A stretch of DNA of 64,000 nucleotides from the sequence record PP400784. One strand, written 5' to 3'. The notes below the pieces were generated by a model. That model made no database searches. It was not told where the DNA came from and was given only the letters and a program-made list of their open reading frames with translations. Position numbers and translations under genes: made by a program. Shown here piece after piece: positions 1 to 62,535 of this stretch. This DNA comes from Escherichia phage FL38. How positions within the stretch are numbered: position 1 is the first letter of the stretch; every line of letters starts with the position of its first letter.

Positions 1-561
1 CTGGTGTATGCTGTTAAGGTTCCAGAAAACAGATTGAATTATGAAATGGACCGTAACCACAATGCGCCAAACATTCGAATTACCGGACGTGATTTTGATC
101 CGCTTGTGTTGAGCTTTAGAATGGACTCTAGCGCATCAAACTATAGAGCAATGCAGGATTGGGTTAACTCAGTAGAAGACCCCGTTACAGGGCTTCGTGC
201 GCTTCCTGTTGACGTTGAAGCAGATATTCAGGTCAACTTACATAACCGAATGGGAGTCCCTCACACGATCATGATGTTTAATGGTTGTGTTCCTGTTGGT
301 GTGAGTGCACCGGAATTAACCTATGAAAACAACAACGAAATTACAACATTCGATGTTACTTTTGCGTATAGGACTATGCAAACTGGTGCTGTAGGAGAGC
401 AAGCCGCGCGAGAATGGATTGAGGATAAGGCAATAAACGCAATAACAAACACTTTCGGCAATAATTTACTTGATAGTGGGTTATCTGCTGCTGGTAATGC
501 TTTATCTCGTCTAAATGGCGTTGGTGGGCGTGTGGTGAATACTGTCACTAACTGGTTCTGA
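1..561 (+). CDS. 54: Late structural protein, probably baseplate/tail-tube gp54-like, C-terminal part; gene starts upstream of window
   Basis: Open frame runs from window edge to stop at 559-561; position upstream of alt matches T4 order 48-54-alt. No direct motif recognised. Confidence 0.45.
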   Translation: MVYAVKVPENRLNYEMDRNHNAPNIRITGRDFDPLVLSFRMDSSASNYRAMQDWVNSVEDPVTGLRALPVDVEADIQVNLHNRMGVPHTIMMFNGCVPVGVSAPELTYENNNEITTFDVTFAYRTMQTGAVGEQAAREWIEDKAINAITNTFGNNLLDSGLSAAGNALSRLNGVGGRVVNTVTNWF

Positions 562-568
562 TAATCGA

Positions 569-599
569 AAGGCGGGGATAATCCCCGCCTTTTTATTTT
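569..599. terminator. Bidirectional rho-independent terminator between convergent genes
   Basis: GC hairpin GGCGGGG-ataat-CCCCGCC followed by T-run on plus strand; sits between gp54 stop and minus-strand lipoprotein stop. Confidence 0.7.
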
Positions 600-1078
600 G
601 CTAAATCATTGCAATATTTTAGTGCCTTAGTTTGAAATTCTGCGCTGTTAAGTTCTTCATAACGGTCATAATCACCGTTTAATGCTGCCTTTCTTGCTTC
701 TTGCTCTATCTGCATGTCAGACATGATAATACAGCGATCCCGCGCTTTCATCTTCTCAAGTTGTATAGACTCTTCTTTCTGCTTGCGCAATTCTTCTTGA
801 CGCTTCTTTTCTTCTTGTGCTTTCTCTTCCCGCGCTTCTTTGATTGCATCCTTGAACATCTGCGTTTGTGGTGCTAAGCCAACTTTAACGCGATCCACGT
901 CTCGACGTTCCATTTTAGAAATAAAGCATGATTCAATCTGATCATCACTTGCATATGCTGCTTTACATTCACGAAGCAAGAAAACCGGATCTGATTTAGC
1001 ATTCATCATAGCTTCCATGTTGGCACAACCAGTAAGCATGAATGCAGCCGCAAGACCAATCAGTTTAATCATTTTCAT
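593..1078 (-). CDS. Predicted lipoprotein with charged coiled-coil region
   Basis: N-terminal signal peptide with lipobox LTGC (MKMIKLIGLAAAFMLTGC); K/E-rich helical segment. Confidence 0.6.
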   Translation of the reverse strand: MKMIKLIGLAAAFMLTGCANMEAMMNAKSDPVFLLRECKAAYASDDQIESCFISKMERRDVDRVKVGLAPQTQMFKDAIKEAREEKAQEEKKRQEELRKQKEESIQLEKMKARDRCIIMSDMQIEQEARKAALNGDYDRYEELNSAEFQTKALKYCNDLAK

Positions 1079-1899
1079 TTAGTCACCTCACCGAAAATTG
1101 TAAATTGTCTACGATTCTCATCGCCGAAAGATTCTACTACGTCGTTTACCTTGACGCAAGTCCCGCGCGGTAAAATTACTTCACATTCGCAAGGATTCCA
1201 TGCAATGGACCCAACAACAAAACCTTTATGATCTTTTACGTCAATTACCCATGATACATTACAAGAATGTTGCATCTTTCCGGTCATTGATTCATATCGA
1301 TTCTCACAATAAAGGCTAGTGCTGTTTGATAGCCATCCTCCAAAGATGATCGGTGTCATGCTGGTAGATACAAAGTTTTTAAAGGTAAACTCCTTATCTT
1401 CAATGATACGCTCTATTGTCTGAATGTCAAGATGTTGACCGCGATAAAGAGTACCGTTTAACTTTTCGGTTTTATCCATGACACAATCCATCAAATCAAC
1501 AATCTCTGATATCTCATCGGTCATGTCTTCTTCCCCTAAGAGAGCACCATTTACCCATTCGTATTGCTCAGACACATAATCACAGATTGCATTATATTCT
1601 GCTGGTGTTATGTTGTTATGTTTGTAATGTTTGAATACATTATCTCCAAAGTCTTCGGAGTGTACTTCATACATCACATTAATGATTTTCTTGACAAATC
1701 CATAATCTTGTGTCTCACGCTCAAGGAAGCGGATAACCTTCACATAATCATCAAAGTTAATCTGATCGCTGATCATCTCAGTGATCATGTAGCCATTAAT
1801 CCCCTCAATGTCATATGTTTCGATGTAATTATCCATACGTTCCATCATTGATTCGCGTGATTCTTCCGAAAGACGAAAATCCTGTAATTTCTTGAACAT
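1075..1899 (-). CDS. Alt-like ADP-ribosyltransferase paralog
   Basis: R-S-E ART motifs (LYRGQ, FVSTSM, CECEVILPRG) closely parallel the C-terminal domain of the adjacent Alt ORF. Confidence 0.7.
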   Translation of the reverse strand: MFKKLQDFRLSEESRESMMERMDNYIETYDIEGINGYMITEMISDQINFDDYVKVIRFLERETQDYGFVKKIINVMYEVHSEDFGDNVFKHYKHNNITPAEYNAICDYVSEQYEWVNGALLGEEDMTDEISEIVDLMDCVMDKTEKLNGTLYRGQHLDIQTIERIIEDKEFTFKNFVSTSMTPIIFGGWLSNSTSLYCENRYESMTGKMQHSCNVSWVIDVKDHKGFVVGSIAWNPCECEVILPRGTCVKVNDVVESFGDENRRQFTIFGEVTK

Positions 1900-1924
1900 T
1901 TTAAACCTCCCATATAACAGAAAA

Positions 1925-1951
1925 CGGGGCTAGTATAAAACTAGTCCCCGT
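1925..1951 (-). terminator. Hairpin/terminator downstream of alt
   Basis: Stem GGGGCTAGT/ACTAGTCCCC with U-rich tract on minus strand. Confidence 0.5.
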
Positions 1952-1977
1952 TTGAGTCAACCATTATTTCTTAAAAA

Positions 1978-4029
1978 TTACATTTTAAATTTATCTGGCA
2001 TTGCGTCTACAGATACCAGATCAGCGATAAGCTGACGTAGAGTTGCCTTATCTGCTTTCTTACGTTCGGTTTTAGCTTCGCTAATGAAGCTGGAGAAAGA
2101 CAGGTCAGAAGCAGGTTTAACAACACCTTCACGGATGAATGCATCACCGTCCGCGATCATCTCGCCAGATTCTTGCAATGCTGCCAGTTCATTTTTGTTC
2201 ATAATATGTGCCTCAATGTAATAAGTTTCTTGTGAATCCGTCGATGCCGTAGCACGAGTTACCGTATCAAAGGATAACACAACACCGCGAGGAAGTAAAA
2301 TCTCGCATTCTTTGTAAGCAAATGCTTTGTTACCTACTGGCAAGACAGGGATGTTTTCCGCGCCAGCAATGGAGAAAGCAACATTAGCGCCACCTTCACC
2401 GCGAGAGCCAGCCATAGAATCAACACCAGCAACGGCACTAGCCACGTTTGCATTCCAGCCGCCAAAAATGTTAGGTGCAAGGGAAGTGCTCACATAGTTT
2501 TTAAAGTAAAACGCTTTTTGCTTACGTGCAGTTTCCCACATTTGCGACCGGAAGTCCATACCACGATACAGAATAGTACCCGGATCAAGTTTAACGCCAT
2601 AGTTGGAGAAGGCATTATCCAGTGCATCGCACATCTTGACCAATTCTTCTGGATCTGAGATGCCTTCAAACTCTTCCAGCTTACGGTCGGTTAGGAAGTT
2701 GTTCATATTGATGTATGCTGCATCGGCATATTCGCTCAACACAAAACCTTCCGCGCCTGGCAGATCAAGATCAATATCTGCCATCATTTCACCCATGTTG
2801 CTAGCAATTGCTTCAAACATACCGGAAGCAACATTACGTAGGGCATCGGTTTTGATCTGGGTGATATGACTACGCAGCATTTCAGCTTTTACATCTGCTG
2901 GCATAGACTGGTCTACTCGATCCATTGCCAGGGCGGTGATCTTGTTTTCGAATACTTCCTCGCTCATGATTTCTTTTAAGCGTTTGATTGATGCTGCGAT
3001 AACTTCCGCAGACAACGGATCATATTGATCCTGAACTTTTACCAGTTCGCTTACTGCGTATTTTGCATCGGCTTCGCTTTCAAAAATAGTACGCATGAAA
3101 CCATAGCGAGTGATAATATCACTTGTCCATTCATTCAGAGAACGGGCGGTTGAACGTTCTAAGGCTTGACGATCAATCAGAGTATTAAACTGTTTCTTAG
3201 GTTCGGCTTCGGTGATATCTTCTTCCGGTTTAAGATTAATTTTTTCTGGATGATTCACATAGTCGCTGTTATAGGTCGCTTGAGTTTTCAGCATTTCTTC
3301 TTTAGTCAAACGAGATTTAGCCGCTACGCGTTGTTCTGCTTCCGCGTTTCGTTCTTCTTCTGACACAAGACTGGCCGCATATGCCTCATCTTTAGTCAGA
3401 GATTCACCAGTAGCCTTAGATACCCAGCGATCACCTAAATCACTTTCTACTTTAGTGAACAAGGATTCATCAAGTTTAATCCCTTTAATCTTATCAATCG
3501 CCATCCCGCGACGCTTGACAACAACTAAAGCGATCTTTTTGCTGGTCATTACTTCCTGCTGGAATACTTCAAACTTCGGTGTACGACGCACCAAACGCTC
3601 TATAACGCGCTTAACCAGTTCGGTCTTACCTTTCATGCGGGATACGTTAAAACGGAACATAACAGCGTCTAATTGCGCTTTACGGGCTGTTTCCATAACC
3701 ACATCAAAAGCACTTGACATAACTGCAATCGGGTTATCGCCTAGACCATTTTTAAGCTGTACAATACGACCGCTTTTGTTCATTTCGCACAGTACAACAT
3801 GTGCGGTCTTGTCACCCATACGAATGATTTTAGGTGTTTTGTTGGTGAAGTTACAAAGACGGACAATCACATCTTTATCGCGTGTCTGTACTGCAAAAAG
3901 CTGTTTAGGATTCTGCTTAGGCTTTAAGCACTGTACCGGAGCAATACTGCCAAAGTTTTCTTCCTCTTCCGTCAACAGCCATTTCTCGAAAGATTCAATC
4001 ATTAGATCGTCGATTTCTAAGTTAAACAT
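1978..4029 (-). CDS. alt: Alt, packaged ADP-ribosyltransferase acting on host RNA polymerase
   Basis: 683 aa (T4 Alt 682 aa); ART motifs YRGMDF / YVSTSL / ECEILLPRG; position between gp54 and DNA ligase region. Confidence 0.85.
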   Translation of the reverse strand: MFNLEIDDLMIESFEKWLLTEEEENFGSIAPVQCLKPKQNPKQLFAVQTRDKDVIVRLCNFTNKTPKIIRMGDKTAHVVLCEMNKSGRIVQLKNGLGDNPIAVMSSAFDVVMETARKAQLDAVMFRFNVSRMKGKTELVKRVIERLVRRTPKFEVFQQEVMTSKKIALVVVKRRGMAIDKIKGIKLDESLFTKVESDLGDRWVSKATGESLTKDEAYAASLVSEEERNAEAEQRVAAKSRLTKEEMLKTQATYNSDYVNHPEKINLKPEEDITEAEPKKQFNTLIDRQALERSTARSLNEWTSDIITRYGFMRTIFESEADAKYAVSELVKVQDQYDPLSAEVIAASIKRLKEIMSEEVFENKITALAMDRVDQSMPADVKAEMLRSHITQIKTDALRNVASGMFEAIASNMGEMMADIDLDLPGAEGFVLSEYADAAYINMNNFLTDRKLEEFEGISDPEELVKMCDALDNAFSNYGVKLDPGTILYRGMDFRSQMWETARKQKAFYFKNYVSTSLAPNIFGGWNANVASAVAGVDSMAGSRGEGGANVAFSIAGAENIPVLPVGNKAFAYKECEILLPRGVVLSFDTVTRATASTDSQETYYIEAHIMNKNELAALQESGEMIADGDAFIREGVVKPASDLSFSSFISEAKTERKKADKATLRQLIADLVSVDAMPDKFKM

Positions 4030-4062
4030 TTTATATCCTCTAGTTGATAACCTATAAACCTA

Positions 4063-4070
4063 TATTTATG
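4063..4070 (-). promoter_or_regulatory. Possible T4-type late promoter for alt (CATAAATA, 7/8 match to TATAAATA)
   Basis: Minus-strand CATAAATA about 35 nt upstream of alt ATG, just downstream of a terminator hairpin. Confidence 0.3.
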
Positions 4071-4073
4071 AAA

Positions 4074-4097
4074 ACGGGGCTTAACGCCCCCTTTTTA
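4074..4097. terminator. Hairpin terminator upstream of alt
   Basis: GGGGC-ttaac-GCCCC stem-loop flanked by T/A-rich tracts on both strands. Confidence 0.55.
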
Positions 4098-4310
4098 TTA
4101 TAATGCACCATCGAGCAATTGCTCTAAGGTGTATCCTGAATAGTCTTTTTCAATCAGGATATATTTTCCTACTCGTTTAATACAACCGCGCATTTCAACG
4201 TATTCTGCGTAGTTGATGGTACGAGTTGTTCCATCTTCCAGTAATGCAGTACCGATTTCGTTAATGCGGTCATAAGTTACGTCGGTAATGATGATTTCGA
4301 TGTTAGCCAT
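4098..4310 (-). CDS. Hypothetical early protein (70 aa)
   Basis: ORF with SD AGGAG and upstream promoter cassette. Confidence 0.6.
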   Translation of the reverse strand: MANIEIIITDVTYDRINEIGTALLEDGTTRTINYAEYVEMRGCIKRVGKYILIEKDYSGYTLEQLLDGAL

Positions 4311-4346
4311 TTGATACTCCTTAGTAGTTCGTTTCGGTATGGGTGT

Positions 4347-4375
4347 ATTATGCTATACACCCTCTGTTATGTCAA
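4347..4375 (-). promoter_or_regulatory. Early sigma70-type promoter cassette (PeSL-like)
   Basis: Minus strand TTGACA-17 bp-CATAAT, A-tract upstream, conserved leader CCATACCGAAACGA then SD. Confidence 0.7.
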
Positions 4376-4381
4376 CAACTT

Positions 4382-4561
4382 TTAGAACATTTTTGAAATT
4401 AATTTTGCTTTGATTTCGCAGAGAACACCTAAAGATTTCTCGTCACCCGCTTTTGCTGCTTCTGATTGCATTTTTGAAATTGCTTCAATGTCAGTGCAAT
4501 TATAAGCCGCTTGAACTTTAGCGATTGCGATGATTGCCGATTCGATGGTTAAGTGTTTCAT
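4382..4561 (-). CDS. Hypothetical small protein (59 aa), not in ORF track
   Basis: ATG with SD AGGAGAA, flanked by promoter cassettes on both sides; translation MKHLTIESAIIAIAKVQAAYNCTD... Confidence 0.5.
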   Translation of the reverse strand: MKHLTIESAIIAIAKVQAAYNCTDIEAISKMQSEAAKAGDEKSLGVLCEIKAKLISKMF

Positions 4562-4633: not shown

Positions 4634-5149
4634 TTATTTTTTTAATTGCTCATCTTGCAATAGGGCAATCACATGCTGGCGATGTTCTTCCGATTGAGGA
4701 ACACCGAAAAAGTTTGTTTTGTAGAAATACTCTAATCGGTCTTCTCGTGTGCTCTCTTCCATCATGATCGCGGGTAGTCCGAGATTTCGGAAACGTCGCT
4801 TTTCTGCTGGCGTAAAATCACTGTAATACAACATAGAATCATCATTACCAGCAATGCTAAACTCATCTTTCATGAAGGAGAATATTGCGTTTAAACGCTG
4901 TTTACCGTCCACGATTTCGATCTCATAGCGAGAGCCATCATCAATCTTAGCCATTGCGATAGCACCAACAGGAAAATCATTAATCATGTTTTCGATAAAC
5001 ATACGTTTGTTTTCGGTGTCCCATACCAAAGGACGCTGATAATCTGGGTTCATGTTGATAAAGCCATCTTCTAACCACGCCTCATAAACAGAGATGACAA
5101 AGTTTTTAGTATTGGTATAGTAACGGCGTTTAGGCGTTAAACGGTTCAT
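4634..5149 (-). CDS. DUF262 / ParB-like nuclease-domain protein (171 aa)
   Basis: Motifs DYQRPLVWD and IVDGKQRLNAI typical of DUF262 (GmrSD N-terminal, ParB/Srx fold); start trimmed to ATG with SD AGGAGA abutting upstream stop. Confidence 0.55.
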   Translation of the reverse strand: MNRLTPKRRYYTNTKNFVISVYEAWLEDGFINMNPDYQRPLVWDTENKRMFIENMINDFPVGAIAMAKIDDGSRYEIEIVDGKQRLNAIFSFMKDEFSIAGNDDSMLYYSDFTPAEKRRFRNLGLPAIMMEESTREDRLEYFYKTNFFGVPQSEEHRQHVIALLQDEQLKK

Positions 5150-5150
5150 G

Positions 5151-5480
5151 TTATAGTCTCCTGAATGGATCATCACGTAAATCAATATCTTTTAAGAACT
5201 CATCCCATGAATGGCGGATATTGTTCTCAATTCTCCAGATAAGCGCAGGGATTGAACGTTCTCCCATCTGGAAGTAAGGATCATATGATCCATATGCCCA
5301 ATATGCTACGACAATTCCACAATCAGCGCAATAATATTCTATTTCACTTGCTGGCGACCAAAGTCCATCAATATGATCAGTGATCTTGCTTTCGATGTTA
5401 TGGCTATGGCAATCAGGGCAACGGATGCAATGACCTTGTTTATCGTAATTTGACGTTAGAGAATACTTAAACAATCTCAT
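5151..5480 (-). CDS. Zinc-ribbon protein (109 aa)
   Basis: Cys clusters C-IRC-PDC and YCADCG; TAATG stop/start overlap with upstream gene. Confidence 0.5.
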   Translation of the reverse strand: MRLFKYSLTSNYDKQGHCIRCPDCHSHNIESKITDHIDGLWSPASEIEYYCADCGIVVAYWAYGSYDPYFQMGERSIPALIWRIENNIRHSWDEFLKDIDLRDDPFRRL

Positions 5481-6196
5481 TATAGATCCTTATTGGCTTC
5501 AAATACTGCCTTTGCGAATCCTCGCGGCGTAAGTGACCTGATAGTCTTTGTTTTCGTTCCTTTCCCGCCTAGCTTAGAATGCTGTTTACTGTACCCTTTA
5601 TTAATCTGCAAAGGTTTCTTTTCTGGCATTATAAAGCCTTGTCCGGTCCATAAGCAAGTCTTTTTCGGGTACATATCACGGGCGGCAATATACTCAGGAA
5701 ACGTAGGATGTTTGTCATCTTCCGGCAAATAACCGCCATATTCCCACGGATGGAACATGTAATCAGGCTTACGCCACATACTAGAGATAACGCTTACAGG
5801 ATTCTCTATCATGTAGGGAACTCCTAGCCATTCACCCAAATAAGCGGTTATTTTAGCTGCCCGTACATCATGAACTTGAATCAATGGTCCTTGTTCTCGT
5901 TTCTTTCGTTCAAAGTGCGCAGCGCCACTAACAGCTAAATTGGTGCACGGTGGGAATGCAAAGATAATATCCGGTTTCCCCCATTCAAGGTCCATTGCTC
6001 TTTCCAGCCAGTTCAAATCAATCCAGGTGTTTACATAGGTAATGTTTGGATGTTCAAATCTGGTATTATACTTTTTGTATGTACCGTGGTCGGCGTCATC
6101 CGCATTAAAGCAGACTACATTATGACCTGCTTTAGCCCATTCTAGCCCCATTATCCCCGATCCGTCAAAGTTGCAGAATATTAATTTTTGTTTCAT
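5480..6196 (-). CDS. SAM-dependent methyltransferase-like protein with C5-cytosine MTase-type motifs (238 aa)
   Basis: FCNFDGSG (motif I-like), FAFPPCTNLAVSGA (PC catalytic motif IV-like), VPYMIENP (ENV motif VI-like); no obvious target-recognition domain. Confidence 0.4.
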   Translation of the reverse strand: MKQKLIFCNFDGSGIMGLEWAKAGHNVVCFNADDADHGTYKKYNTRFEHPNITYVNTWIDLNWLERAMDLEWGKPDIIFAFPPCTNLAVSGAAHFERKKREQGPLIQVHDVRAAKITAYLGEWLGVPYMIENPVSVISSMWRKPDYMFHPWEYGGYLPEDDKHPTFPEYIAARDMYPKKTCLWTGQGFIMPEKKPLQINKGYSKQHSKLGGKGTKTKTIRSLTPRGFAKAVFEANKDL

Positions 6197-7013: not shown

Positions 7014-7487
7014 TTAGTTGCACCAAATTCGAATGATTTCGTCTCGTTCAAATTTTTGCCAGATTACTCGGTCGCCCGCTGCCATAATACTGACAAATCC
7101 AGTTATATTTCCGGTGTACTTGCTTTTAGTTTCTGCATCATATTCAAAGAATGGAGCTTTAAGATCGCTAAACTCATCTTTTCCCACAAACTTCATAACA
7201 TGACGGTGTGCGTAATATTCGCTTCTTAGTGTTGTTGTGATAGTTCCGTCATCATTTGATTTCAGATGCAATTCGGCATCTTCATAAAGACTTGCATCTC
7301 GTTGTTTACTTTCGATACCATCATTATATGTTGATTTGGTTGCACTCCAACATTGATATGTCTTATCTACATTTTCGATCTTTTCCTGTGTCATGTCAAA
7401 AAGCGGCGCAACCTTTTTCTTAGCCGCGTGCGCAACGTTGGTCATAGACAGTGCCGCAACAACCACAATCGCAATAATTTTCTTCAT
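7014..7487 (-). CDS. Predicted secreted/periplasmic protein (157 aa)
   Basis: N-terminal signal peptide MKKIIAIVVVAALSMTNVAHA with AHA-A cleavage site. Confidence 0.6.
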   Translation of the reverse strand: MKKIIAIVVVAALSMTNVAHAAKKKVAPLFDMTQEKIENVDKTYQCWSATKSTYNDGIESKQRDASLYEDAELHLKSNDDGTITTTLRSEYYAHRHVMKFVGKDEFSDLKAPFFEYDAETKSKYTGNITGFVSIMAAGDRVIWQKFERDEIIRIWCN

Positions 7488-12859: not shown

Positions 12860-14354
12860 CGAATACCTCTTTTACTGTATTTGCAGTGGTCTTGTCGTAG
12901 CGAATACGTTTGATGATTGGGAGAAATAAAGAGAACTCCGGTTCATCTTCTTTACGTGATTTGCTGCGGATATACCCGTTGCATGTCATCTCAATAACTT
13001 TTCCAATCAGGTTATGACGGTCAGCCCATAACATTTCTCGGTCGAGTTCATTTCGACGATCGAACGGAATTACACGTTCAGTACCATCATCACCTTTTTC
13101 GGTTGTAGTGTCGGTTAATCCCGATCCGGTGTTAGTCATCATTCGTCCGCACGCACTACGGACAGTAAAACCGCCTACCTTATTGGGGTCTTTACTATGC
13201 GGATATACATCAACAATTTCCGCGTCGAAGTCAATCACTTCTTTAAATTTAACCTGATCTTTACTACGGCGATCTTCAAATACACCATGTAAATTTTTAA
13301 GGATAATACCTTCTAAGCCCATGTTGACATAACGATGATATACTTCGCGAGCTTCATCGATATTGTTAACTACAGTGTTTTCGATGATCTGAACACGAGG
13401 ATCGTTAAGTTCTTCAACAATCTGTTTTAGTTCTTCGAATCGATCTTTATATTGCTTCGTTGCTTTCTCGTTTCCGTAATACACATCACGGTCGATAACA
13501 TCCCAGACAGTGTAAACAATACATTGGGCTTCTTCTTTTGGAATAGTTCCTTTAAGTGATTTGTTGAGGATACCATTTCCGGTCTGACGATCTGCAACAA
13601 CGGATTCTTTCACTGCTTCCGCTACTGGCGTTAATGGCATTTCCTCTTCTTCAAATATCCATGACAGAGTACCATCATAAACGCTTTCAACGAAGTTCTG
13701 CGCTGGTGTTTGCGAAAGGGTAGGCATATATACCAATTCGCCATCTAGAACAATTCCACGGCCTCGTAGACGCTCTAAAACCGCAAACAAATCATCAAGC
13801 CCTTGATAGGTATTACCTGAGCGGGTATAGATTGCTAATGTTTCCCCGTCAATATCAGCCATACCACGAGCGCCATCGCTTTTAAGTTGTGCATACGCCG
13901 GATACTTGATATTAGCAATAGTCTTATCAGAACATGACGATGCAAGGTGGCACGGCTGCTGGGGGATCAGTTTCTTCCATACCTTGTTTGCAGTGGTAGC
14001 GGAACAACCACATTCCAGGTCACGATTCAGGACCATCATTGCAACTTTAGCATCATCCTCTGACAAGCAAGTCAGAGTATCGGTAACTAGCTGTAATGCT
14101 GCATTACCAGTTACTTGACGAGTGGCAAGTTTATTTTTAAAGACCTGTAATGCACCGGATAAAGACAATACAGACGAATAACGCGATGGTTTATCGTATT
14201 TCTTTACGCCAAACGTAACCTGTTTGCAATATGCCAGATAAAAGCATTCTTTCAGCGTTTCATTGCTCGCGGATTCTTTCAGAATCTTTTCTTTCAGCGA
14301 TGTTTTGTCTGTTGCTGCAAGCTGATTAATGATATTAAGAATTGACATTTTCAC
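12852..14354 (-). CDS. 30: ATP-dependent DNA ligase
   Basis: 500 aa; adenylation motif YAQLKSDGARG (KxDG), EGIILKN, GIANKSLKGTI closely parallel T4 gp30. Confidence 0.92.
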   Translation of the reverse strand: MKMSILNIINQLAATDKTSLKEKILKESASNETLKECFYLAYCKQVTFGVKKYDKPSRYSSVLSLSGALQVFKNKLATRQVTGNAALQLVTDTLTCLSEDDAKVAMMVLNRDLECGCSATTANKVWKKLIPQQPCHLASSCSDKTIANIKYPAYAQLKSDGARGMADIDGETLAIYTRSGNTYQGLDDLFAVLERLRGRGIVLDGELVYMPTLSQTPAQNFVESVYDGTLSWIFEEEEMPLTPVAEAVKESVVADRQTGNGILNKSLKGTIPKEEAQCIVYTVWDVIDRDVYYGNEKATKQYKDRFEELKQIVEELNDPRVQIIENTVVNNIDEAREVYHRYVNMGLEGIILKNLHGVFEDRRSKDQVKFKEVIDFDAEIVDVYPHSKDPNKVGGFTVRSACGRMMTNTGSGLTDTTTEKGDDGTERVIPFDRRNELDREMLWADRHNLIGKVIEMTCNGYIRSKSRKEDEPEFSLFLPIIKRIRYDKTTANTVKEVFDV

Positions 14355-14814
14355 CTCGTTTTGTTAAACGTTCACGAATATCATTGAGGATACTACAAAA
14401 TTCCGATTCAGTCAATATAGTCTTTAACGGATCAGTTCCACCTATGCTATGACGTAATTTCTTATTTCCGGTAGAGAGTAATGCTTTACAAAATTCTGGG
14501 TTATTCCGTGCCATCGTAACAAATGCCAGATGTACCAGTCTGTAATAATGCTCACTCATTCGATGAATCGGGCGACCCTGAAAATATAACATGTGATTCT
14601 CAATCTTTTCAGTTCTTCCGGTTCTTTTTGCTTTGCCACCGTGCATCAAAAAGATTTCTCTTTGTCTCTGAGGGTTCTTAAATCTTAGCCCCTGTAAAAA
14701 TCCTTCTGTGCTGTTAATATCGCAACCAAATAGACGGAATGGTCTTTTATTGAAATTACTCAATTCACCCGATGGATAAGGTCCACCCGCATAGATATCA
14801 ATTTCAGAAGTCAT
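14335..14814 (-). CDS. NADAR-like (YbiA/DUF1768) protein, putative ADP-ribose-processing enzyme
   Basis: IDIYAGGPY..GELSNF, EGFLQGLRF, AKRTGR, ALLSTGNKKLRHSIGGTDP resemble NADAR conserved blocks. Confidence 0.55.
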   Translation of the reverse strand: MTSEIDIYAGGPYPSGELSNFNKRPFRLFGCDINSTEGFLQGLRFKNPQRQREIFLMHGGKAKRTGRTEKIENHMLYFQGRPIHRMSEHYYRLVHLAFVTMARNNPEFCKALLSTGNKKLRHSIGGTDPLKTILTESEFCSILNDIRERLTKRGENVNS

Positions 14815-62031: not shown

Positions 62032-62535
62032 TTAAATTAAAGAAAATTTGTAAATCTCTATCCGATCGCCATTACACGCGTAAACTTCCTCGATCTCATC
62101 AAGGATCATGGTCGTCCCTGTCTTGTATATGCACTCGCGCTCATCTGCCAACATAGCATACAAAGACAGTCGAGTAGTCGGATTGTCATACTCTTTAGAC
62201 ACCACTCGGTCAATAGCATGTTCGTAATAATTCATGCAAGGCTTGGTAGGTTTTATTGCAATAATCTTTCCTGTTGCATAAACATCGGTCGCAAAGTCCT
62301 CTGCTGTTGATTGCAGTGGCGTAAAGCTCATAGGACGCTCTACAACGAAAGAATCGCCTACAATTAAGGTATCCAGCTTACGACCTTCTCTTTTGCTCAC
62401 ACCGCGATACAAGGCTTCATGATGCACTAACCGCTCAGTCTTTTCGATCAATCCATTAAGGATCGACATATCGATATTTTCTTTAGAGTTCATCACTTCA
62501 TCAATGATGTTAAGTTCTTCTGGTGTAAATTGCAT
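62032..62535 (-). CDS. Possible Mod-like ADP-ribosyltransferase (167 aa)
   Basis: Candidate R-S-E triad: EALYRGV, MSFTP, ADERECI; T4 position of modA/modB. Confidence 0.35.
   Translation of the reverse strand: MQFTPEELNIIDEVMNSKENIDMSILNGLIEKTERLVHHEALYRGVSKREGRKLDTLIVGDSFVVERPMSFTPLQSTAEDFATDVYATGKIIAIKPTKPCMNYYEHAIDRVVSKEYDNPTTRLSLYAMLADERECIYKTGTTMILDEIEEVYACNGDRIEIYKFSLI

Follow-up and report, generated by a model that had tools for sequence, protein, structure and literature searches.

A short paralog of the Alt ADP-ribosyltransferase with a predicted early promoter in Escherichia phage FL38 and other Krischviruses

Introduction

Bacteriophage T4 packages and injects Alt, an arginine-specific mono-ADP-ribosyltransferase characterised by its modification of Arg265 in the alpha subunit of RNA polymerase. 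The ADP-ribosyltransferases of T4 are made at different times of the infection: alt belongs to the late genes, while both ModA and ModB are produced early (PMC9697503). Mass spectrometry has established that T4 Alt is trimmed by the prohead protease at ITE-6 and LTE-619, with the loss of 63 C-terminal residues (Ali et al. 2017, PMC5694885). In the T4-type phage RB49 a second gene, ORF183c, has been listed as a paralogous duplication of alt (Nolan et al. 2006, PMC1524935). Here we analyse the corresponding gene in Escherichia phage FL38, within a stretch of 64,000 nucleotides of sequence record PP400784 that we call the window. An open reading frame (ORF) of 274 residues, found in the ORF list of the window at 1075..1899 on the minus strand, lies directly downstream of a full-length alt; we refer to it as the short gene, and to its product as the short protein or short enzyme.

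Phages RB49 and phi1 also carry PeSL elements, in which a strong sigma-70 early promoter is combined with a stem-loop terminating upstream transcription. Promoter and terminator activity has been shown experimentally for PeSL copies other than the one considered below, and a role in shuffling adaptive genes has been proposed for the elements (Arbiol et al. 2010, PMC2839356).

The short gene is real, yet it is already known: it has been annotated and published since 2003–2006, and RefSeq labels the RB49 homolog RB49p183 (NP_891754.1) 'ADP-ribosyltransferase; similar to C-terminal part of T4 Alt protein'. Published accounts of ORF183c end at 'paralog of alt', leaving its promoter, its absent propeptides and its mosaic history undiscussed. 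We add to them a corrected domain map, on which the protein appears truncated at two sides and has no new N-terminus; the opposite predicted expression of the two paralogs, with alt late and the short copy early from a PeSL; and evidence for a recombining cassette made up of the short gene and the neighbouring lipoprotein gene.

Results

The short gene in Krischvirus genomes

Positions 500..4400 of the window matched 58 phage records at 98.7-99.1% identity, and every one of these is a coliphage of the RB49 type, genus Krischvirus (RB49, JSE, phi1, FL04 and others). The DNA of the locus is 98.8% identical to that of RB49 and the gene order is the same, gene 54 on the plus strand being followed on the minus strand by a 161-residue ORF, the 274-residue ORF, alt and small ORFs. 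A 100% identical short protein is encoded in other Krischvirus records. Judged by these comparisons, the 274-residue ORF is the same gene as RB49 ORF183c (RB49p183), with no difference at the sequence level. Divergent relatives came solely from ENA/Logan contigs and bring the short family to six members, with identities of 42-88%; when IMG/VR was scanned with the family alignment, two near-identical Krischvirus loci came up and nothing else.

Catalytic residues and predicted fold of the short enzyme

In BLASTP the short protein and Alt are 37% identical across 109 residues (E 1e-16). The Pfam domain PF03496 (ADPrib_exo_Tox) exceeds its gathering cut-off of 23.4 bits in both proteins, scoring 59.3 bits in the short one (E 4.3e-16, residues 82-266 on profile positions 2-187 of 196) and 38.2 bits in Alt (E 1.2e-9), and the profile-profile alignment of the short family with five full-length Alts reached probability 99.9 and E 2.4e-34 (hhalign). 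Among the PHROG families, phrog_15144, named 'ADP-ribosyltransferase', covers the short protein end to end (658 bits), and the Alt family phrog_802 matches it at E 3e-45. All PHROG matches of the protein are of the Alt type (15144, 802, 26651 and 9935); the Mod family phrog_832 is not among them.

The catalytic motifs of the short protein are Y152-R153-G154, S178-T179-S180 and E238-C239-E240, and those of the window Alt are Y488-R489-G490, S514-T515-S516 and E574-C575-E576. R153, S178-T179-S180 and E238-x-E240 are invariant in 6/6 members of the short family, across which 70 alignment columns do not vary at all. R153, E238 and E240 remain invariant when T4 Alt, the RB51 Alt paralog alt.-2, ModA, ModB and a Mod-like ORF of the window are added. 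A reading of this stretch made from its letters before our analysis, the sequence-only reading, had placed alt and a second Alt-type ADP-ribosyltransferase here on the strength of YRG, STS and E-x-E motifs. Both ORFs are present where it put them, the homology results above bear out the family assignment far beyond chance, and the motifs occur in both proteins, with no catalytic residue lost in alignment with T4 Alt, ModA and ModB.

The AlphaFold model of the short protein has a predicted local distance difference test (pLDDT) score of 82 and a predicted template modelling (pTM) score of 0.81, and consists of an N-terminal helical region followed by a beta-core. Foldseek returned 130 matches to the PDB at E <= 1e-3, and 50/50 of those listed are ADP-ribosyltransferases. 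The best are the arginine-specific Vis toxin, C3, Certhrax, CDTa and iota Ia (E 5e-11 to 1e-8); these toxins share the fold of the model (probability 1.00, TM 0.6-0.7 on the target) and the PF03496 domain, at 12-20% sequence identity. A search of PDB sequences with the short enzyme gave marginal matches only (Tre1, E 0.07; Vis, E 0.55), and no Alt structure was matched. The predicted fold is thus of the ADP-ribosyltransferase type, and by its motifs the protein belongs to the R-S-E (C3/VIP2/Alt) clade of these enzymes. Unlike the toxins, it would be an intracellular effector of a phage, with no secretion or translocation partner.

Within the R-S-E clade, an E-x-E motif in the ADP-ribosylating turn-turn (ARTT) loop goes with arginine specificity (iota, Vis, Alt) and Q-x-E with asparagine specificity (C3). 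Since the short enzyme has E-x-E instead of Q-x-E, arginine residues are its predicted acceptors of mono-ADP-ribose. Two stretches are invariant within the short family and unlike those of all Alts: AWNPxE[CN]E in the ARTT loop, where the AWNPxECE of the short protein stands against FAYKECE or APSNEME in Alts, and PI[IV]FGGWxxNSTS[LM][YF]CE after S-T-S. As the ARTT loop is family-specific and unlike that of Alt, it is plausible that the target of the short enzyme differs from Alt's.

An Alt-like protein truncated on two sides

Residues 47-273 of the short protein are collinear with residues 379-610 of the window Alt in the hhalign alignment, and with the PHROG Alt profile the alignment reaches further, covering residues 8-268 on profile positions 330-602 of 674. 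The short protein thus begins at the equivalent of about Alt 330-379, and the Alt-specific N-terminal region of some 330-380 residues is absent. Its first ~46 residues showed no similarity to the Alt N-terminus, the collinear match being the only one that hhalign reported. The sequence-only reading had the C-terminal half paralleling the Alt catalytic domain behind a different N-terminal region; this is mostly wrong, as at most ~46 residues are left unmatched.

The other end is equally sharp. All short proteins (6/6) finish in ...RQFxIFxEV, while 13/13 Alts examined, whether full-length, partial or split, continue for ~70 residues to a [MLIV][PS]xKF (or RF) tail, which in the window reads MPDKFKM. 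We confirmed the positions of ITE-6 and LTE-619 in the T4 Alt sequence; LQE-620 of the window Alt aligns with LTE-619, and the short proteins stop ~8 residues short of that position. Their end would therefore correspond roughly to the C-terminus of mature Alt, the propeptide being absent. Compared with T4 Alt, the short protein retains homologs of the catalytic module and of the helices before it, with the same R, S-T-S and E-x-E, and is encoded next to alt, but it is without the N-terminal ~380 residues, the C-terminal propeptide of ~63 residues and the xPxKF tail. On this alignment it is an Alt-like protein truncated on two sides and reduced to the catalytic module with ~100 residues of preceding helices.

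Another separation of the catalytic from the N-terminal half was seen in a metagenomic T4-type contig (L008, 2366..4386), where Alt appears split into two adjacent ORFs of 356 and then 316 residues; the 316-residue ORF bears the catalytic domain and an LPEKFII tail.

Opposite predicted expression of the two paralogs

A spacer of 78 nucleotides separates alt from the short gene, with the minus-strand sequence TAA-TTTTTAAGAAATAATGG-TTGACT-caaacggggactagttt-TATACT-agccccgttttctgttatat-GGGAGG-tttaaa-ATG. It has the sequence features of the PeSL definition: -35 and -10 boxes close to the sigma-70 consensus, an AT-rich upstream region, a stable G/C-tract stem-loop overlapping the promoter, a Shine-Dalgarno sequence and a start codon. 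The core of the element, AATAATG-N-TTGAC[AT]...AACGGGG...AGTTTTATACT...CCCCGTTTTCT, is nearly invariant in 5 loci whose proteins are 42-88% identical. A compensatory stem change keeps the hairpin, with CTAG/CTAG in the window and CAG/CTG elsewhere, and the equivalent hairpin of a divergent relative (contig L005) has a folding energy of -17.8 kcal/mol (z -6.4). By its architecture we take the spacer element to be a PeSL cassette; the main text of Arbiol et al. (PMC2839356) does not mention a PeSL between genes 184 and 183. The window scan found no TATAAATA-like element, the late-promoter sequence of T4-type phages, upstream of the short gene.

The signals before alt are of the other kind, so that the two genes differ in predicted promoter type, sigma-70/PeSL for the short gene and late for alt. 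A match to the late-promoter sequence at 7/8 positions, CATAAATA, precedes alt and has a count of 1 in the window. The exact TATAAATA occurs 3 times, 2/3 of the occurrences being upstream of the late genes 34 and 36 at similar distances. Just upstream of the alt element lies a terminator-like hairpin, and the L005 contig has a hairpin and AATAAATA at the same place before alt; a conserved terminator upstream of alt has been described (Nolan et al. 2006, PMC1524935). The hairpin presumably insulates alt from upstream early transcription. From these signals we infer that alt forms an insulated unit transcribed late, and that its product, as in T4, is packaged and injected.

Downstream of the short gene, the start of an ORF for a predicted lipoprotein overlaps the short-gene stop codon (ATGA), and it is therefore probably co-transcribed with the short gene and would be translationally coupled to it. 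It adjoins the short gene also in contigs L005, L007, L012, L017 and L018, and its sequence is hypervariable among relatives. Its match to the Cor superinfection-exclusion family is weak (E 0.007) and covers the signal peptide only. The early transcription unit that the two genes would form probably ends at a bidirectional terminator-like hairpin, which separates the lipoprotein ORF from gene 54.

A second PeSL-like element was noticed at 4347..4375 on the minus strand, upstream of a 70-residue ORF (4098..4310); in it TTGACA-17-CATAAT lies over the hairpin GGGTGTATAGCATAATACACCC.

Age, selection and recombination

In the region that they share, identity between the short protein and the Alts tested is 22-30%, and to the neighbouring Alt it is 24%. 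It is accordingly an old paralog or an old acquisition, to judge from these distances. A recent duplication of the resident alt is rejected, since the identity to the neighbour is no higher than that to other Alts.

Tandem Alt is common in T4-type phages. In the RB51/T2-type phages (alt.-2), in JS98 (alta/altb) and in the Moonvirus pair, the second copy occupies the slot of the short gene, after alt and before gene 54, and this shared slot suggests an old tandem duplication. The second copies of Tevenvirinae are full length and have both termini (685-708 residues; RB51 alt.-2 has 685 and the two Moonvirus copies ~700 each), whereas the Krischvirus copy keeps the catalytic part only. The T4 remnants alt.-1/alt.-2 are the opposite case, holding only the first, non-catalytic part of alt. 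Orthology of the short gene with alt.-2/altb is unproven, because its identity to second copies (26-30%) is not clearly above that to first copies (26-28%).

Compared with its relative on contig L017, whose short protein is 83% identical, the short gene has a ratio of nonsynonymous to synonymous substitution rates (dN/dS, omega) of 0.11; omega is 0.05 in the catalytic half, 0.10 in the N-terminal half and 0.05-0.14 throughout. These values mark the gene as one under purifying selection. Synonymous divergence (dS) is unevenly spread, at 1.9 in codons 1-150, 0.62 in codons 151-274 and 0.30 in alt. High dS together with low omega in the N-terminal half points to recombination with a distant allele, and on this evidence the N-terminal helical half has a history different from that of the catalytic half, the gene being a recombination mosaic. 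Positive selection on the N-terminal half was considered as another source of its divergence and rejected, the high divergence being matched by a dS of 1.9 with omega 0.10.

The neighbouring genes show the same pattern. Protein identity to the L017 contig is 98% for Alt, 83% for the short enzyme and 33% for the lipoprotein-like ORF. Nucleotide identity falls from ~94% to 70-79% exactly at the intergenic region between alt and the short gene, is ~90% again in the catalytic half, drops to ~50% in the lipoprotein ORF and is recovered in gene 54. In the same comparison a recombination breakpoint is visible inside the short gene (1400..1900), close to where the LYRGQ catalytic core begins.

The set of ADP-ribosylation genes and other neighbours

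The coordinates of the features are collected in Table 1. Two further genes of ADP-ribosylation named by the sequence-only reading do exist. The first, Mod-like, reaches 33% identity with T4 ModB (E 7e-11) and 23% with ModA (E 2e-6) in BLASTP, and its product is shorter than both. One Mod homolog is present per Krischvirus record, and two copies are found in RB69-type phages. The Mod-like ORF is preceded by TTGACA-17-TATTAT and a hairpin, with a T-run directly before the ATG. The second, described as NADAR-like, is most likely the gp30.3 homolog. In a Foldseek search of the PDB the model of this protein matched YbiA (2b3w, E 8e-6) and the NADAR structures 8bau and 8bat, with no other significant match. 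A regular-expression scan of all window ORFs for the canonical NADAR motif found none, and the gene came to light through its match to PF08010, a Pfam family that takes its name from T4 gp30.3, and through the structure search; the stretch ELSNF...STEGFLQGLRF of the gp30.3 homolog resembles the NADAR signature.

The same reading had called this an unusually complete toolkit, which does not hold against T4 itself. T4 has Alt, ModA, ModB and gp30.3, and the Krischviruses have Alt, the short paralog, one Mod homolog and the gp30.3 homolog. The tally of three transferases and one NADAR-fold protein is equal in both phages, and the set is an ordinary one for the T4 type.

Just upstream of alt lies a group of three minus-strand ORFs, a GmrSD N-terminal (DUF262) ORF (4634..5185, E 1e-19), a zinc-ribbon ORF (5151..5480) and a 238-residue ORF (5480..6196) that is annotated as a DNA methyltransferase in RB49. 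The GmrSD N-terminal domain belongs to type IV restriction enzymes, and a phage copy of it is curious. A 157-residue ORF (7014..7487, minus strand) is the positional match of RB49 ORFan192, which figured in the PeSL mini-circle experiments of Arbiol et al.; it had no Pfam or PHROG match at the thresholds used.

Table 1. Positions, strands and properties of the features discussed, in window coordinates
Feature	Position	Strand	Properties
Short Alt paralog (RB49 ORF183 homolog)	1075..1899	-	274 aa; collinear with Alt 379-610
Codon of catalytic Arg153 (LYRGQ motif)	1441..1443	-	invariant in family alignments
Codons of S178-T179-S180	1360..1368	-	invariant in family alignments
Codons of E238-C239-E240, E-x-E of the ARTT substrate-recognition loop	1180..1188	-	inside AWNPxE[CN]EVILPR
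Putative PeSL cassette between alt and short gene	1923..1970	-	AT-rich leader, promoter, overlapping stem-loop, U-tract
Predicted promoter of short gene	-35 TTGACT 1960..1955; -10 TATACT 1937..1932	-	17-nucleotide spacer; scan score 10/12
Stem-loop followed by U-tract	1952..1923	-	holds the spacer and the -10 box; -17.5 kcal/mol, z -4.6
Shine-Dalgarno sequence GGGAGG of short gene	1906..1911	-	read from sequence
Predicted lipoprotein	593..1078	-	161 aa; lipobox LTGC; MKMIKLIGLAAAFMLTGC...; phrog_16112
Bidirectional terminator-like hairpin	567..593	.	between lipoprotein ORF and gene 54; 12-pair stem, 7 G-C pairs
alt, full-length Alt-type ADP-ribosyltransferase	1978..4029	-	683 aa; phrog_802 full length, E 1e-179; RB49p184 alt
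Late-promoter-like element CATAAATA	4063..4070	-	7/8 match to T4-type TATAAATA; 34 nucleotides upstream of alt ATG
Terminator-like hairpin GGGGCGTTAAGCCCC, then GTTTT	4076..4090	-	just upstream of alt promoter; -14.2 kcal/mol, z -3.5
gp30.3 homolog, predicted NADAR fold	14335..14814	-	PF08010 E 6.5e-38; AlphaFold pLDDT 90
Mod-type ADP-ribosyltransferase homolog	62032..62535	-	167 aa; phrog_832 E 7e-21; after dda, dda.1, srd (modA/modB slot)

Discussion

When in the infection might the short enzyme act, and how would it reach the host cell? We favour the view that it is an early-made, unpackaged, arginine-specific ADP-ribosyltransferase, and would give this a probability of about 0.6. On this account alt would be transcribed late from its TATAAATA-like element between two terminator hairpins, the downstream one being part of the PeSL cassette, and its product would be packaged and injected as in T4. 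The sigma-70-type promoter of the PeSL would start transcription of both the short gene and the lipoprotein gene as soon as infection begins; with such an early promoter the short enzyme would be newly synthesised inside the host, as T4 ModA and ModB are, and would mono-ADP-ribosylate arginines of host proteins with NAD+. Its family-specific ARTT loop (AWNPxECE) suggests a target set not identical to that of Alt. T4 has two Mod proteins and the Krischviruses a single homolog, so the short paralog may take the place of the third transferase. The proposed likeness to ModA and ModB is one of deployment, as a small stand-alone R-S-E enzyme behind an early promoter with an R and an E-x-E that align; by descent the short enzyme stands outside the Mod family, matching Alt-type PHROGs only, and a true Mod homolog is encoded elsewhere in the window.

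Several points weigh against this account. The early timing of the short gene is predicted from its promoter, and the late promoter of alt is likewise a predicted element with a 7/8 match. An early promoter is compatible with later synthesis too, and a leaky alt terminator could give late read-through. Arginine specificity and targets are deduced from motifs. A literature search yielded no usable Krischvirus virion proteome or RB49 transcriptome. Finally, an [LI]-x-E tripeptide, the pattern recognised by the prohead protease, ends at residue 8-13 in 5/6 members of the short family as against 9/92 window ORFs, which is compatible with a targeting propeptide and hence with packaging.

The last point leads to the alternative of a second packaged transferase, in which an N-terminal propeptide (MFKKLQDFRLSE/E...) would target the protein to the prohead core, to be cleaved in gp21 fashion and injected together with Alt. 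The sequence-only reading had left the choice between a packaged and an early enzyme open; that was the right question, and the evidence tilts the answer towards early, with the N-terminal motif as an argument for packaging. The motif is kept although the sequence around it is poorly conserved, and in T4 a targeting sequence of ten N-terminal residues, closed by a motif of this kind, suffices for packaging (PMC9026906); T4 Alt itself loses 6 N-terminal residues at ITE-6 (PMC5694885), and the short gene adjoins alt and virion genes. The motif test was, however, post hoc, and the family members are related by descent, so that their counts are not independent. The Mod-like protein has a motif of the same type (IDE-13), while its T4 homologs are early, non-virion proteins. 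No internal head protein with a capsid-targeting sequence is annotated in RB49 55-90 kb or in the window that could have served for comparison, and the N-termini of RB49p124, p125 and p130 were uninformative. The strongly conserved sigma-70 promoter, with no TATAAATA-like element beside it, also speaks against packaging, as does the absence both of the C-terminal propeptide and tail of every full-length Alt and of the N-terminal 380 residues. We regard packaging as unlikely.

An early transferase need not serve to reprogram RNA polymerase. The short enzyme might instead act in counter-defence or on a non-classical substrate, with its swappable N-terminal half recognising the target; possible substrates include a host toxin or defence protein, as with Alt on MazF, and transfer to an RNA chain, as with ModB. 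Consistent with such a role, the N-terminal 150 codons have been exchanged by recombination between close relatives, as their dS indicates, the downstream lipoprotein gene has been almost wholly replaced, the cassette is bounded by the PeSL, and the ARTT loop is peculiar to the family; extracts of the literature also describe many non-polymerase targets for T4 Alt and ModB. Any particular target is nevertheless hypothetical, and the low dN/dS of both halves gives no sign of positive selection. We think this rather improbable as a distinct explanation; it overlaps with the favoured early transferase and does not exclude it.

That the short gene is a decaying, non-functional or pseudoenzyme remnant of an alt duplication is strongly disfavoured and scarcely credible: T4 alt.-1/alt.-2 are indeed annotated as leftovers of a duplicated first part of alt, and the Krischvirus ORF, too, is a copy cut short that sits where they do, between alt and gene 54, but its reading frame is intact in six members as divergent as 42-88% identity, its catalytic residues and 70 columns are invariant, dN/dS stays at 0.05-0.14 with synonymous sites saturated, and it has a conserved promoter and Shine-Dalgarno sequence of its own and a confidently predicted fold.

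Returning to the early-made enzyme, we offer tentatively, and as something that may well not hold, a fuller history in which an Alt-derived effector was switched from virion-injected, with a late promoter and two propeptides, to early-transcribed and became a third transferase in a lineage with a single Mod gene, its helical half and the lipoprotein gene being swapped among related phages through recombination at the cassette so as to give phage-specific targets. The route to such a switch, which we hold with the same reserve as the switch itself, would have been the loss of both ends of the protein and the gain of a mobile promoter-terminator cassette.

As the result of a genome scan the finding is ordinary, tandem Alt paralogs being common in T4-type phages and this one having been annotated for two decades, and its practical value is modest. 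The short gene is nonetheless an uncharacterised member of the set of phage ADP-ribosyltransferases for host take-over, and the short enzyme could widen the list of host proteins modified in T4-type infections. Ali et al. (2017, PMC5694885) raised the question, still open, of what the two propeptides of Alt are for. If the short enzyme is an early-made derivative of Alt, comparison of the two would help to separate the parts of Alt that serve packaging from those that serve catalysis and the choice of target.

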